DNA of 64,000 bases, from positions 183,861 through 247,860 of the forward strand of contig JADJNF010000004.1 in NCBI GenBank assembly GCA_016714445.1. The letters run 5' to 3'. The notes under the pieces were generated by a model, which did no database searches, was not told the DNA's origin, and saw only the letters and a program-made list of their open reading frames with translations. This stretch comes from Saprospiraceae bacterium (GTDB taxonomy: Bacteria > Bacteroidota > Bacteroidia > Chitinophagales > Saprospiraceae). The translations under genes were made by a program, and so were the position numbers. Below are positions 25,888-33,113 of this stretch, one piece after another (positions within the stretch are counted from its first letter, which is position 1; each line of letters opens with the position of its first letter).

Positions 25888-25945
25888 ACGATGCAAAGGT
25901 AAAAGTGGTGTACGCAATCTTTTTGCGTAGGAGAAATTATTTTTA
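25888..25945 (-). promoter_or_regulatory. Putative Bacteroidetes-type promoter with overlapping palindromic operator, upstream of the RNA-repair operon
   Basis: On the minus strand, TACCTTTG (TAnnTTTG -7 box) lies 26 nt upstream of the Rnl1-like ATG. A 7-5-7 palindrome TACGCAA-N5-TTGCGTA sits between the -33 and -7 regions. The same ~57-bp element recurs at 33057-33113. Confidence 0.45.
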
Positions 25946-26107
25946 TTTTTCTCGCAGAACTTGTATCGCTACCACGATATTTTCTAGATTTCGCAGATGA
26001 AAGGGGAAATATTAAACCTTTCACCAACTCGCCATCAGTCGAAGTAATAATTAACTTTTGAAACTTATTTATTTTCCTATTTGTTTACTTAGAAAATCAA
26101 AAATAAA

Positions 26108-26389
26108 ATGCAAATCGTTCTAGAAAGTCCATATGATGAATATATAGCCAAACTTATAGAGAATGGTAATTTTCAAAATGCAGAACAAGTCGTTCAATTT
26201 GCTTTGAATGAGAAATTTCAGTTTGCGCAATGGGATCATCAAACTATTTCATTGATAGAAGAAGGATTAAAAGATGTAGAAGAAGGAAGAGTTATAGAAA
26301 TCACCGAAGACTACATAAGAGATGTTATGGATGGTGCGAGAAAAAAATACCTAGATAATGATCCTATACCATCCCATATAAAGCCTTGA
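26108..26389 (+). CDS. parD: ParD-family (ribbon-helix-helix) antitoxin
   Basis: ENGNFQNAEQVVQFAL and IEEGLKDVEEGRVIE resemble ParD. Immediately followed by a ParE-like frame. Confidence 0.6.
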   Translation: MQIVLESPYDEYIAKLIENGNFQNAEQVVQFALNEKFQFAQWDHQTISLIEEGLKDVEEGRVIEITEDYIRDVMDGARKKYLDNDPIPSHIKP

Positions 26390-26688
26390 AAAAGTACTTG
26401 CTAAAGATTACACCAAAAGCTAATGAAGATATTAAAGATATCTTGCATTATACTTTGTCAGAATATGGAGAATTGCAAATGCAAAAGTATGCTGATAAAA
26501 TATGAAATTCATTTCAATCTATCAAGTCCCAACCTTTTTTAGGTAAACAAGCTTTGATAAAGGGTAAAGGACATTTCATACATTTTGTAGGTAAACATAC
26601 AATTTTTTATGACGTAAACTTAGATGAATCATCTATAACAATTATCCGAATTTTACACCAAAAAATGAATTTTATCAAGCACCTATAG
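26386..26688 (+). pseudogene. parE: ParE/RelE-family toxin with in-frame TGA stop (26503-26505) and TTG start
   Basis: Reads LKKYLLKITPKANEDIKDILHYTLSEYGELQMQKYADKI*NSFQSIKSQPFLGKQALIKGKGHFIHFVGKHTIFYDVNLDESSITIIRILHQKMNFIKHL. ParE-like C-terminus (...IFYDV..I.IIRILHQ). TTG start overlaps the ParD stop as TTGA. Confidence 0.6.
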
Positions 26689-26808
26689 CTATCACTTATA
26701 CAACTCCCTCCTAATCTCCACCAATAATCGCTCCACCAATTTTTGATCCGGAGCCTCTGGAAGTAGCCAATTACTTAAATTTTGATTAATCTCTTTTTAA
26801 AAGTTTTT

Positions 26809-29277
26809 TTATAAATTAGGGATAGAAATTGTTTGAAGCAAATTACCTTTTATGACAGTGATATTATTCTTGTCTTTAAAGAAAATGCCATTATATTCTG
26901 GTTCTAAAATGTAAGTTTTTCTCTTTATATCATACAGCCCTAACTTTCTATCGATTTCTACTAGTAAATAATCACGATGGATCTCATAAATATCATCAAA
27001 TAAAGCTTCAGTAAATTGTAAATTCGGACGATGAACACCATATTTTGTACCAATTTTATAGATTACAACACCATAATCGTCATGATGAATGATATTTTTA
27101 AAAAAGAATGCTGTATCCACGCCATTTTTAAATATCTCATTTTCATTGCTTGGAATAAAGTAGAACTTACCATTTCTTTTAAAGAGGTATTTCTGATGAC
27201 TACTTTCATCCGAAATCCAATCATTTTCTGCATTTAAAGCAAGATCTCCGTTTAAATTAATACCACCAAGCTTACCATTTTTTTCAACCAGAATAAAGGA
27301 AGAAGCTTTTTTAATAAAATTGTAACCAGAAATCATTTTTGTAATTTGTAAATTAGTCCCATTATTGTAATTTGGTTTTATAATTGAAATTGTGTCTTTA
27401 GTTATCCCAATACCAGCAAACAATGTATCATACTTATAATCTGTAAGTTGTATTCCTAATTCATTAAAAATGGCATATTTACCTTGTTCATTTTTCACTC
27501 CTAATAGCCGATGGTCAAATTCATAACAATAATCATAACTAAAATTTATTATTGTATTTCCATCAAATGACTCCATCCCATACTTTCCATTTTTTTTAAG
27601 AATAATTGATTTAAGATGGATAAGTTCTTTAAAATACTTAATTGGAATTAATTTAAAAGGAATAAGACTTATCTCATAATGATCCAGACTCCCTTTTCTG
27701 TTTTGAAGATCAAAATATGTAATATTAGAATTTGACCATGGTAATCTAAAGCCAGGATATGAACTCTTTTTACCCGATTTTGTATCAATTAAATGAACAA
27801 ACCTATCCCTAAATGTTCTTTCTTCAATCAAATATATTCCATCAAAAGATGTTTTTCTAATGTATTCATAAATCGGAGGAATTATAATTTTTTTGTTTTT
27901 TGAAATAACACCGTATTTTCCACCAATTTGAATAATAGAAGTTTCTGATAGATTATTTAAGTTGATGCTTTTTTTCATTTCATCATTAACGTGCAGAGTA
28001 GATAAATCAACCGCAACTCCGTTAATGTCGTAGGCATGCATAGACCCGCTATTTTGAAAACATATTATGATGTCATTATGATTTTCTGATATTTTTAAAG
28101 ATGCACGGAATGGATTGTCACAGGGACATTTTCTTAAAAGTGTTCCAGAATTATCAAAAATTGATATTTCACGCCCAGATTTTATAAAGTACCTATGTTT
28201 ATCTTTTGATAGGCTATTTCCAAAAATTGAAATTAACTCATGTTTTGGCTCAAAAAGATCAGGACCAAATAAAAAAGATATTAAGCCTGATTTTTTATTC
28301 TTGTAAATTTTAACATAGTGAGGATTATTATCATAAGAAATAGAATCTACTATAAGATCTTGAACTTTTAATTTTTCCTTTAAATCCAAATTGGTAAAAA
28401 AATTTTCGTAACCATTCAAAAGAGAAATATACTTATTACCGACGACACCTATCAAATCTCTATCATCATTAAGTATAAATGAATCTAAAAGAATCGGAAA
28501 AGATTGTAGTCTCTCACTATATATTTTAAACTTTTTGGATATTTTATCCTTTTTCAAAGTAATTTTATTGACTTTTATTATTGGGTATTCAGCCAATTCT
28601 CCAGTTTTAATGTTTAATTCAATTTTAAGTTGGTTGTTGGCAATTGATGAATAGCTTGCAAATAATTTATCTTCTTCAAAATAAATAAAATTCCACCAGT
28701 TATTAAATTTTAAATTACCATTAAGATCAACCACGTTGAATTGATTATTTTCATTCGAAACTCTAATTAGGGAATCATTAATGAAACTAGCAGTTTTATA
28801 AGGAAGAATGCTTTTTCTATTTGCATCAACCTTAATTAAAGAAGGGTATTCATCAAAGTTTTTTAGGATAACATAATCATTTTTTACTTCTATTTCGTTA
28901 AAACCAAAAACATTATATTTTGAATTCTTATTAATGTGCAACAACTTAGCTTTACTATTATTTATTTGCAATTGGTATAAAGAATCATCAATACTATTTA
29001 CTCTGTCATAATTAAGATTTACTACCCATTTGTTTTTTGTCAAATTAAAAATACCATATTTATTTTGATGATGAACGTGTTTGTAATCTTCATCATTAAT
29101 ATTAAAACTTCTGTAGGTACTAATAACATTTACATTGCTATAATCTCTAAAATCAATATTTTCGGACTTAAGGACCTTAAAGTATGGTGATTTCATACTC
29201 GTTTCTTGAGCATAAATGTTCATTACCATAAAACTCCAGATTACAAAAAAAACTATAGTTCTAAATAAAAATCGCAT
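26809..29277 (-). CDS. WG/KWG-repeat-containing secreted protein
   Basis: Signal peptide. Multiple KNGKYG / GKYGVISKN WG-like repeats. Confidence 0.6.
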   Translation of the reverse strand: MRFLFRTIVFFVIWSFMVMNIYAQETSMKSPYFKVLKSENIDFRDYSNVNVISTYRSFNINDEDYKHVHHQNKYGIFNLTKNKWVVNLNYDRVNSIDDSLYQLQINNSKAKLLHINKNSKYNVFGFNEIEVKNDYVILKNFDEYPSLIKVDANRKSILPYKTASFINDSLIRVSNENNQFNVVDLNGNLKFNNWWNFIYFEEDKLFASYSSIANNQLKIELNIKTGELAEYPIIKVNKITLKKDKISKKFKIYSERLQSFPILLDSFILNDDRDLIGVVGNKYISLLNGYENFFTNLDLKEKLKVQDLIVDSISYDNNPHYVKIYKNKKSGLISFLFGPDLFEPKHELISIFGNSLSKDKHRYFIKSGREISIFDNSGTLLRKCPCDNPFRASLKISENHNDIIICFQNSGSMHAYDINGVAVDLSTLHVNDEMKKSINLNNLSETSIIQIGGKYGVISKNKKIIIPPIYEYIRKTSFDGIYLIEERTFRDRFVHLIDTKSGKKSSYPGFRLPWSNSNITYFDLQNRKGSLDHYEISLIPFKLIPIKYFKELIHLKSIILKKNGKYGMESFDGNTIINFSYDYCYEFDHRLLGVKNEQGKYAIFNELGIQLTDYKYDTLFAGIGITKDTISIIKPNYNNGTNLQITKMISGYNFIKKASSFILVEKNGKLGGINLNGDLALNAENDWISDESSHQKYLFKRNGKFYFIPSNENEIFKNGVDTAFFFKNIIHHDDYGVVIYKIGTKYGVHRPNLQFTEALFDDIYEIHRDYLLVEIDRKLGLYDIKRKTYILEPEYNGIFFKDKNNITVIKGNLLQTISIPNL

Positions 29278-32489: not shown

Positions 32490-32783
32490 TTTGAAAATAT
32501 TTAAAAAATTACTACTAAAAAACATACTACTAAAAAATGCACAATCAGAATACATTCGTCCATACATTACGGAATCATCTTCGGAGCCATCGGGATCAGC
32601 CATCATTTGGGATTTTTGATAAATAGATTTACATCCATTAATCAGTCCTCGCTCATGATCGGCGGACGGAGATTTTTCGTATTATAATTTCAAAGTGATG
32701 TACAGACTGCCTTGATTATCCAAAGATTTTCTTGGCGGAATGTATTCGTCATGTGCAAAAGTGTTTAAAAAAAGCTACCGTGA

Positions 32784-32850
32784 CAGGATAGTGAAGGATT
32801 CGAACCTTCTGCGTCCAAGGTTTGCTGCTCTAACCACTGAGCTATTCGGC
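32784..32850 (-). tRNA. tRNA-derived fragment / pseudo-tRNA
   Basis: Minus sense GCCGAATAGCTCAGTGGTTAGAGC (acceptor plus D-arm) ...GAAGGTTCGAATCCTTC (T-arm) ACTATCC. Anticodon arm about 8 nt too short and acceptor strands do not pair. Confidence 0.25.
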
Positions 32851-32890
32851 TTTTGACCGAAACGGGAGTCGAACCCATGACCCGCAAATT
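32851..32890 (-). tRNA. tRNA 3'-half fragment (T-arm plus acceptor)
   Basis: Minus sense ...GGTCATGGGTTCGACTCCCGTTTCGGTCA. No matching 5' acceptor or D-arm upstream. Confidence 0.2.
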
Positions 32891-33056
32891 ATGCGCCACT
32901 TCACATCTTACTCGTCAGAATACAATCAACATTGCACTATGGAGCTATACAGAAACTCTCAACTATGGACTTGTACAGATATAAAAGCGACTTCTTCAAC
33001 ACATTACTGTGATATATTTTGAGTTTGAACAACTTTTTGTTCCTTTATCATCATTG

Positions 33057-33113
33057 ACGATGCAAAGGTAAAAGCACAGTGCGCAACCTTTTTGCGTAGT
33101 AAAAATTATTTTG
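33057..33113 (-). promoter_or_regulatory. Second copy of the promoter/operator-like element (see 25888-25945)
   Basis: ACGATGCAAAGGTAAAAG...TGCGCAACCTTTTTGCGTAG...AAATTATTTT. Minus-sense TACCTTTG -7 box faces the tRNA-fragment / SPFH region. Confidence 0.4.

Follow-up and report, generated by a model that had tools for sequence, protein, structure and literature searches.

Single-stranded DNA (ssDNA) is the ligand of the transcription factors DriD, PafBC, and CapW, which all carry a WYL domain. For RNA-repair systems—RtcB, Pnkp/Hen1, Ro60/Y RNA, and Band-7/tRNA-like RNA—the mode of induction has, to our knowledge, been worked out solely in the case of the proteobacterial regulator RtcR. At DriD promoters, a palindrome overlaps the place of a non-consensus –35 element and lies at an identical distance to the –10 element in all targets (PMC13004042), the site itself reading ATACGAC-N7-GTCGTAT (PMC12041258), and PafBC substitutes for –35 recognition (PMC11804915). 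Here, we describe a palindromic promoter element that occurs twice in a 64,000-nucleotide stretch of a Saprospiraceae bacterium genome (assembly GCA_016714445.1, contig JADJNF010000004.1, positions 183,861 to 247,860; hereafter, the window, with coordinates counted from its first letter). Copy 1 precedes an Rnl–Hen1–Pnkp RNA-repair operon and copy 2 a YrlA-like RNA followed by a Band-7 gene. With a probability that we put at about 0.75, each copy combines a promoter with a candidate site for a WYL-type factor, one regulator co-controlling both loci as part of an RNA-repair regulon that spans the phylum.

A repeat search and alignment of the window placed the two copies at 25888–25950 and 33057–33119, where they form a direct repeat of 63 nucleotides (nt) with 84% identity. 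This agrees with a first-pass annotation of the window, which had proposed a shared element at both loci, and the palindrome and the AAATTATTTT tail were indeed found in each. Read on the minus strand, both copies follow the same order: an AT-rich block, the palindrome TACGCAA-AAAG(A/G)-TTGCG(T/C)A, a 9-nt spacer, the box TACCTTTG, and GCATCGT. The 17-mer CGATGCAAAGGTAAAAG is exact in both, with one additional match in the window when up to 3 mismatches are allowed (0.17 expected). In the whole 64 kb, the palindrome TRCGCAA-N5-TTGCGTA is confined to these two places, a count reached in 0 of 100 dinucleotide shuffles (mean 0.27); no further site was found in the window at up to 2 mismatches, and the extra window matches at 3–4 mismatches were at or below the chance rate of shuffled sequence.

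TAnnTTTG is the established –7 consensus of Bacteroides and Flavobacterium promoters, and both copies carry such a box on the minus strand (25901–25894 and 33070–33063), as the annotation had read, with the predicted start ~7 nt after it. A –33 TTTG, sought 19–21 nt upstream of the –7 box, is absent in both copies, its position being occupied by the CGCAAAA of the palindrome. The palindrome had been placed between the –33 and –7 positions; it is centred on the –33 position instead. As for the spacing of about 26 nt to the next start, the annotation is right for copy 1, which lies 26 nt upstream of the Rnl start codon (ATG at 25867). It is wrong for copy 2, after which the non-coding YrlA-like RNA comes first, and not an open reading frame (ORF). 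Each copy looks like a complete promoter under regulation, of housekeeping Bacteroidota type and read on the minus strand. We also considered a sigma-54, RtcR-type promoter, which direct reading rules out: the GG of the –24/–12 signature GG-N10-GC is missing from both copies, with CG standing where it would be required, 10 nt before the GC of TTGCG. Among the operon-flanking ORFs, a Pfam scan found no sigma-54 activator.

To look beyond the window, we scanned a collection of one genome per species (185,579 species) with the pattern RCGCAA-N5-TTGCG-N9-TTTANNTTTG, which returned 89 loci. Eighteen of these came from other phyla, including 6 Acidobacteriota matches inside one conserved gene; the remainder were Bacteroidota from Saprospiraceae, Chitinophagales, Bacteroidales, Flavobacteriales, Sphingobacteriales, and Cytophagales. 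Positions left free in the pattern extend the palindrome across 75 Bacteroidota sites, with T at –1 in 92% and A at +17 in 89%, and C and G one step further out in ~60%. The site centre is asymmetric, A-(A/T)-A-G-A, and an A stands 7–8 nt after the –7 box in 61 of the 75 sites—likely the transcription start. On the other side of the palindrome, the positions equivalent to the AT-rich block are A/T-rich (A in 53/75 at –15 and in 52/75 at –14), and this block is possibly an UP-like element. The 18 non-Bacteroidota matches possess neither the extended palindrome nor the centre or the start A, and look like chance or coding occurrences. Operator 1 of the window fits the phylum-wide consensus, operator 2 is kept in the Saprospiraceae relatives at loci L051 and L011, and the candidate regulator site reads TACGCAAAAAGATTGCGTA. 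One contig labelled ‘uncultured Staphylococcus sp.’ (L043) carries RtcB, two WYL genes, and a Bacteroidota-type operator; its genes are Bacteroidales-like, it resembles Muribaculaceae loci, and it is probably mis-binned. A scan of viral contigs with the motif gave 0 matches.

This conservation bears on two readings that dispense with a DNA-binding regulator. In the first, already raised in the annotation as a terminator-like small RNA on the plus strand, the palindrome acts as a hairpin in RNA or DNA: an intrinsic terminator on that strand, a small structured RNA, or a 5′ structure of the transcript. The 7-bp arms are able to pair, and a few loci (L059, L066) have arms of 14–15 nt followed by T-rich sequence. 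However, between 25000 and 34000 we found 0 terminator-like sites with 3.4 expected, the T-run lies 8–9 nt away from the stem, no plus-strand gene ends at either copy, and the copies have no Rfam match. Moreover, the regulated transcript is predicted to start only downstream of the hairpin, and what is conserved throughout the phylum is base identity, beyond mere pairing. We reject this reading as very improbable. The second, a generic dispersed repeat resembling a miniature inverted-repeat transposable element, or else two similar strong promoters with no dedicated regulator, is in our view the least probable of all. It would fit two copies 7.2 kb apart at 84% identity with an insertion sequence (IS) element and other repeats nearby, yet the two copies stand alone in 64 kb. 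Dozens of copies, which the annotation had named as the mark of a generic repeat, did not appear when the fetched loci were scanned with the strict pattern: there were at most 2 sites per locus and, as far as noted, at most 2 loci per assembly. In addition, distant orders carry the element at orthologous places in front of genes that are related in function, and it is strongly linked to one transcription-factor gene.

As for those genes, the first one downstream of the site was RtcB in 20 cases, Rnl in 9, and a 340-amino-acid (aa) WYL regulator in 3, with single or few cases of Hen1, Pnkp kinase-phosphatase, Ro60/TROVE, RlaP, other nucleotidyltransferase-like proteins, HNH, a PIF1-like helicase, ABC-type ATPases, and several unknowns. 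We also clustered, without supervision, every ORF lying no more than 3 kb from a site; the families that recurred were RtcB (24 loci), the WYL regulator (22), Rnl (11), Pnkp (7), RlaP (6), and Ro60 (4). Within this distance, no other transcription factor recurred beyond a group of near-identical rumen genomes. The regulator gene adjoins the site in ~24 of these motif-anchored loci. It is mostly divergent from the regulated gene, its start codon lying ~28–90 nt from the palindrome in most divergent cases; elsewhere it directly follows the motif, or is found within or just before the regulated operon.

We then reversed the test and fetched 80 metagenome loci solely by similarity to the regulator, 75 of which had the gene start on the contig. 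A palindrome (at most 2 mismatches in 14 positions) was present within 400 bp upstream of the regulator gene in 53 of these 75 loci; in all, 78 sites were counted in 500 kb against ~2 expected from base-4 counting and window shuffles. RtcB (28), Ro60 (14), RlaP (11), or Band-7 (1) was adjacent in 47 of the 80 loci. One of them, L142, has the order divergent WYL gene, operator, T-arm-containing RNA, Band-7, RtcB, RlaP, which by gene order is the architecture of the copy 2 locus with a ligase added. In the Saprospiraceae locus L170, the WYL gene is divergent from RtcB and the same site is present. The co-regulation of the two window loci suggested in the annotation is thereby supported, with the module preceding RNA-repair genes phylum-wide and tightly linked to one transcription-factor family, and we consider that both loci are very probably controlled by one regulator.

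The 340-aa protein scores 39 bits against Pfam WYL (cut-off 21.8) and 35.5 bits against WCX (cut-off 23.9). In an AlphaFold model of a Saprospiraceae representative, three helices and a wing make up the N-terminal unit, followed by a helical linker and then by the WYL and WCX domains. When this model was searched with Foldseek, all significant matches in the Protein Data Bank (PDB) were full-length WYL factors—DriD first (E 5e-13), then PafBC, CapW, BrxR, and WYL1—the DriD, PafBC, CapW, and BrxR matches ranging in E from 5e-13 to 1e-6. By sequence, a PDB search with the regulator found no significant relative (CapW, E 0.42), and NCBIfam holds no model for it; the family comprises >7,600 clusters that bear generic names alone (‘WYL domain-containing/YafY’). 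Thus, a site palindromic by base identity, a regulator with the architecture of a winged helix-turn-helix (wHTH)-WYL-WCX factor, and a site lying over the –35/–33 position at constant spacing are all found here, and linkage to the regulator gene is found in related loci though not inside the window. That the site is the operator of the WYL regulator is, on these sequence data, well supported.

How the regulator would act is suggested by the geometry of the site. In the regulator-anchored set, where spacing was not imposed, 53 of the 74 distinct palindromes are followed by an exact TAnnTTTG, at a distance of 9 nt in 44 sites and of 10 nt in the other 9; the asymmetric A-rich centre, AWAGR, always points towards this –7 box. 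With a start 7–8 nt after the box, the palindrome centre falls near –34, the expected place of the Bacteroidota –33 TTTG; at target promoters, no TTTG was found 19–21 nt from the –7 box. We propose that a homodimeric wHTH-WYL-WCX factor would bind the palindrome and, once loaded with its ligand, recruit RNA polymerase to a promoter devoid of a –33 element. The same regulator would co-control the Rnl–Hen1–Pnkp operon through copy 1 and the YrlA-like RNA/Band-7 module through copy 2, both belonging to a regulon that elsewhere would include RtcB, Ro60/Y RNAs, and RlaP. Judging from this regulon content, the ligand could plausibly be a single-stranded nucleic acid arising from RNA damage. Since the site sits at the missing –33 element and at a fixed distance to the –7 box, as in DriD-activated promoters, we lean towards activation by polymerase recruitment upon ligand binding as the somewhat better-founded sign of control, repression in the style of CapW/BrxR being the less probable sign and still a serious candidate.

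The annotation had described the element as a classic repressor operator, which is not supported as stated: the site replaces –33 at a rigid 9–10 nt, the geometry of DriD activation. In a fuller version of that idea, the same WYL regulator bound to the same operator would be a repressor, its dimer covering the –33 region and blocking RNA polymerase until a damage-derived ligand frees it, as with CapW/BrxR. The palindrome does overlap core promoter DNA, the regulator gene frequently lies divergent, as that of CapW does, and both CapW and BrxR are significant structural matches; CapW itself is reported to be an ssDNA-sensing repressor (PMC11662680). Some regulator promoters, moreover, embed a –33 TTTG in the site. 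Repressor sites, however, usually tolerate variable placement, whereas rigid spacing, an orientation-specific centre, and targets free of a –33 TTTG are traits of DriD-activated promoters, and DriD and PafBC outscore CapW/BrxR structurally. We hold this reading to be rather less likely than activation. At six loci (L133, L135, L140, L145, L165, L169), the embedded –33/–7 promoter lies ~50–60 nt upstream of the WYL gene start. Such a promoter implies that the regulator may repress its own gene beside a possible activation of the divergent target.

Returning to the proposal of a WYL activator, several points weigh against it or against parts of it. CapW and BrxR, themselves divergently encoded WYL factors, are repressors, which leaves activation less than secure. 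At some regulator genes, the centre of the operator together with a half-site reads as a canonical TTTG on the opposite strand, exactly 20 nt from the gene’s own –7 box. The structural model is of modest quality, with a predicted local distance difference test score (pLDDT) of 66 and a predicted template modelling score (pTM) of 0.34. The motif-anchored loci were picked by a pattern that forces both core and spacing; the regulator-anchored set alone is unbiased, and that set is dominated by gut and rumen Bacteroidales. A profile hidden Markov model of the regulator, run against all ORFs, detected no WYL-family gene in the 64-kb window, and none was found in the 8-kb loci of the window’s closest relatives; we assume that the regulator is encoded elsewhere in this genome. 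Finally, the WYL gene could in principle be merely a member of the regulon, with another factor binding the site.

Extending the proposal, we tentatively envisage a phylum-wide ‘RNA-damage response’ run by a WYL activator that would sense damaged RNA, such as cleaved tRNA ends, and not ssDNA—a non-homologous counterpart of the CARF/sigma-54 regulator RtcR. In such a scheme, which we offer as speculation, the Y-RNA-like and tRNA-like RNAs would be members of the regulon and possibly its feedback ligands or decoys.

The two window loci fit a common theme. Downstream of copy 1, Rnl, Hen1, and the kinase, phosphatase, and ligase-like modules of Pnkp are encoded together (Table 1), as in the Pnkp1–Rnl–Hen1 RNA-repair system, which is reported from the Bacteroidota genus Capnocytophaga, where it has been characterised (PMC4411300); copy 1 is thus predicted to drive an RNA-repair operon of this type. 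In 8 other loci, too, the motif is followed by an Rnl orthologue. Upstream of Rnl orthologues with 53–92% protein identity, the palindrome/–7 block is kept and the remainder is unalignable, and this block reads as a classical phylogenetic footprint. In an exact-protein look-up, the window Rnl found no match. Pnkp is split into three ORFs here (ligase-like, kinase, phosphatase), the last two overlapping by 4 nt; in relatives such as L050, kinase and phosphatase are fused.

Table 1. Coordinates of promoter parts, genes, and RNAs at the two loci, in window positions.
Feature	Position	Strand	Remarks
AT-rich block upstream of palindrome 1, AAAAATAAAAATAATTTCTCC	25930–25950	–	Includes the AAATTATTTT tail; block common to both copies
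Operator 1	25911–25929		Perfect palindrome TACGCAA-AAAGA-TTGCGTA (minus-strand reading); centre ~–34 from the predicted start
–7 box of copy 1, TACCTTTG	25894–25901	–	Bacteroidota TAnnTTTG; 9 nt after the palindrome
Predicted transcription start (A), copy 1	25886	–	19 nt before the Rnl ATG; consensus A in 61/75 sites
Rnl, T4 Rnl1-like RNA ligase, 344 aa	24833–25867	–	First gene after copy 1; Pfam RNA_lig_T4_1, E 3e-19
Hen1, RNA 3′-end 2′-O-methyltransferase, 436 aa	23511–24821	–	Pfam Hen1_N, E 2e-58
Split Pnkp, ligase-like domain protein	23514–22330	–	Pfam PNKP_ligase, 2.8e-24
Split Pnkp, polynucleotide kinase	22282–21824	–	Pfam AAA_33, 6e-19
Split Pnkp, HAD phosphatase	21827–21363	–	Pfam HAD_PNKP, 7e-51
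Operator 2	33080–33098		TACGCAA-AAAGG-TTGCGCA (minus-strand reading); 1 mismatch to a perfect palindrome
–7 box of copy 2, TACCTTTG	33063–33070	–	9 nt after palindrome 2
Predicted transcription start (A), non-coding RNA/Band-7 transcript	33055	–	Same register as copy 1 and as the 61/75 consensus A
Untranslated stretch, predicted start to Band-7 start	32490–33054	–	565 nt; ~90% identical in three Saprospiraceae genomes
YrlA-like/tRNA-like RNA	32793–32908	–	147 nt downstream of the predicted start; two segments resemble T-arms and one a D-arm
Band-7/SPFH protein	31395–32489	–	Pfam Band_7, E 2e-30; real start MKKVVV at 32489, backed by alignment conservation
Second tRNA-like tail, T-arm GGGTTCGAATCCC	31152–31330	–	Downstream of the Band-7 gene; 91% conserved in L011

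Downstream of copy 2, the RNA at 32793–32908 matches the Rfam family YrlA (RF02553; E 8e-7), its 43.3 bits falling short of the 69 that Rfam sets for gathering. It therefore resembles YrlA and is not a member by the Rfam criterion; its homologues score 49.5 bits in L011 and 43 bits in L051. No Rfam family reached its gathering threshold in the window, and ARAGORN called 0 tRNAs there, this RNA included. A Band-7 gene comes next, the adjacency expected of YrlA or b7a-tRNA in an RNA-repair context, and the window contains no TROVE (Ro60) or RtcB gene. Burroughs and Aravind 2016, as summarised in bioRxiv 10.1101/312249, predicted that a Band-7 gene next to a tRNA-like RNA (‘b7a-tRNA’, sometimes YrlA) serves as an accessory module of RNA repair beside RtcB. 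Because this module is linked to RNA repair, the two window loci share one functional theme. In Saprospiraceae JADKEB01, the window’s closest relative, exactly these two sites recur together on a single contig (L089, L051).

The conserved untranslated stretch as a whole consists of a 147-nt leader before the tRNA-like part and ~280 nt after it; its counterparts are L051 5355–6046 and L011 6803–7460, and variation is confined to a segment around the second T-arm, which is replaced in L011. The conservation of this stretch suggests a larger structured RNA or two RNAs. Folded as a single sequence, the 296-nt RNA after copy 2 did no better than shuffles (z –0.95), and we put forward no structure for it. 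A small ORF after copy 2 (ATGATGATAAAGG...) was rejected as coding, its frame being broken by a 5-nt deletion in L011. The second tRNA-like tail has no Rfam match at E ≤ 10. At 34722–35000, a truncated 3′ part of Band-7 is fused to a copy of that tail (83–100% identity to 31152–31318 and 31850–31957); the Band-7/tRNA-like module seems to have been duplicated here, 3.5 kb away, in a copy that has decayed and lacks the promoter.

Related arrangements were seen at several other loci. In L023 (Bacteroidaceae), the operator is followed by an array of YrlA-like/tRNA-like RNAs and then Ro60, with an RlaP–kinase–Thg1-like operon divergent. The array (1250–2130, minus strand) contains four tandem modules, each flanked by a GCCGTAG...ACTTCG repeat, and one of them scores as a genuine tRNA-Met(CAT) at 53.8 bits; the divergent operon has a degenerate palindrome of its own, ATGCAA-N5-TTGCGTA. 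Two close relatives, L046 (393–427 and 1251–1285) and L070 (3555–3589), have a second operator copy before a 243–254-aa protein with no Pfam match. This protein is encoded just upstream of Rnl in L046 and alone in L070, is absent from the window, and may be an uncharacterised member of the regulon.

The ORFs that diverge from the two copies on the plus strand were considered as regulators and set aside. That next to copy 1 (26108–26389, 93 aa) has a weakly ParD-antitoxin-like N-terminus (NCBIfam TIGR02606, E 5e-4, below the cut-off), with no obvious toxin-partner ORF of at least 50 aa after it; those beyond copy 2 (33339–33854 and 33851–34669) have no DNA-binding match. Elsewhere in the window, two further repeat pairs look intergenic, 49934–49999 with 53161–53226 (66 nt, 98%) and 6249–6298 with 10017–10066 (50 nt, 82%), and may be other shared regulatory elements. 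An IS4-like transposase gene (37283–38482, with an upstream ORF at 38452–38829) is flanked by near-identical direct repeats, 36820–37267 and 38869–39317 (300 nt at 99%, 125 nt at 100%), a duplication that is unusually long or possibly an assembly artefact.

We found no literature on a WYL regulator of RNA repair or on this motif, and Burroughs and Aravind 2016 may already mention the gene neighbourhood; an RNA-repair regulon under a WYL factor is apparently undescribed. The motif offers a concrete, testable definition of such a regulon for a phylum that includes major gut commensals, and is usable now to annotate RNA-repair genes, and possibly genes against ribotoxins, in Bacteroidota. It also points to a candidate master regulator, whose family has until now been associated with DNA damage and phage defence, and poorly understood parts—the Band-7 module, RlaP, Y-RNA arrays, and several unknown proteins—would be joined to one response. 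The motif would, in addition, be a second and independent example of promoters built in the manner of DriD targets, this time in a lineage whose sigma factor is unusual.

Set against the systems described so far, the copy 2 locus shares with the Band-7 plus b7a-tRNA/YrlA module of the source cited above the order of a tRNA-like/YrlA-like RNA and then Band-7 behind one predicted promoter, with L142 adding RtcB and RlaP in the operon; it differs in that the window holds neither RtcB nor Ro60 and that the RNA falls below the YrlA threshold and is not called a tRNA. In its gene content, the regulon equals that of RtcR in Proteobacteria (rsr-yrlBA-rtcBA or rtcBA), where likewise one ligand-sensing, often divergent regulator governs RtcB, Ro60, and Y RNAs. 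RtcR, however, is a sigma-54 enhancer-binding protein with a CARF domain, whereas we find a housekeeping-type promoter and a linked regulator of the WYL type.

Among WYL factors, CapW and BrxR resemble the candidate regulator in their wHTH-WYL-WCX fold, in being encoded divergently with a palindromic site between the two genes, and in autoregulation, but are repressors that control CBASS and BREX, not RNA repair. We know of no fixed, activator-like spacing reported for either. The ‘sigma adaptation’ by PafBC in mycobacteria is similar in that a WYL factor stands in for recognition of the –35 element where promoters have none; PafBC differs in being a heterodimer that recognises a non-palindromic –26 motif and binds solely together with RNA polymerase. 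DriD, the WYL activator of Caulobacter crescentus, belongs to another phylum with another sigma factor and promoter type (TAnnTTTG here), serves a DNA-damage response and not RNA repair, has AC where the inner half-site bases are CAA here, and shares 15–17% identity in the structural alignment. Like the candidate regulator, of which it is the best structural match, DriD is a homodimeric wHTH-WYL-WCX factor; its site, too, is a palindrome of 19–21 bp with the outer frame TACG-N11-CGTA, and in both cases the site lies over a missing –35/–33 position at a constant distance to the –10/–7 element.

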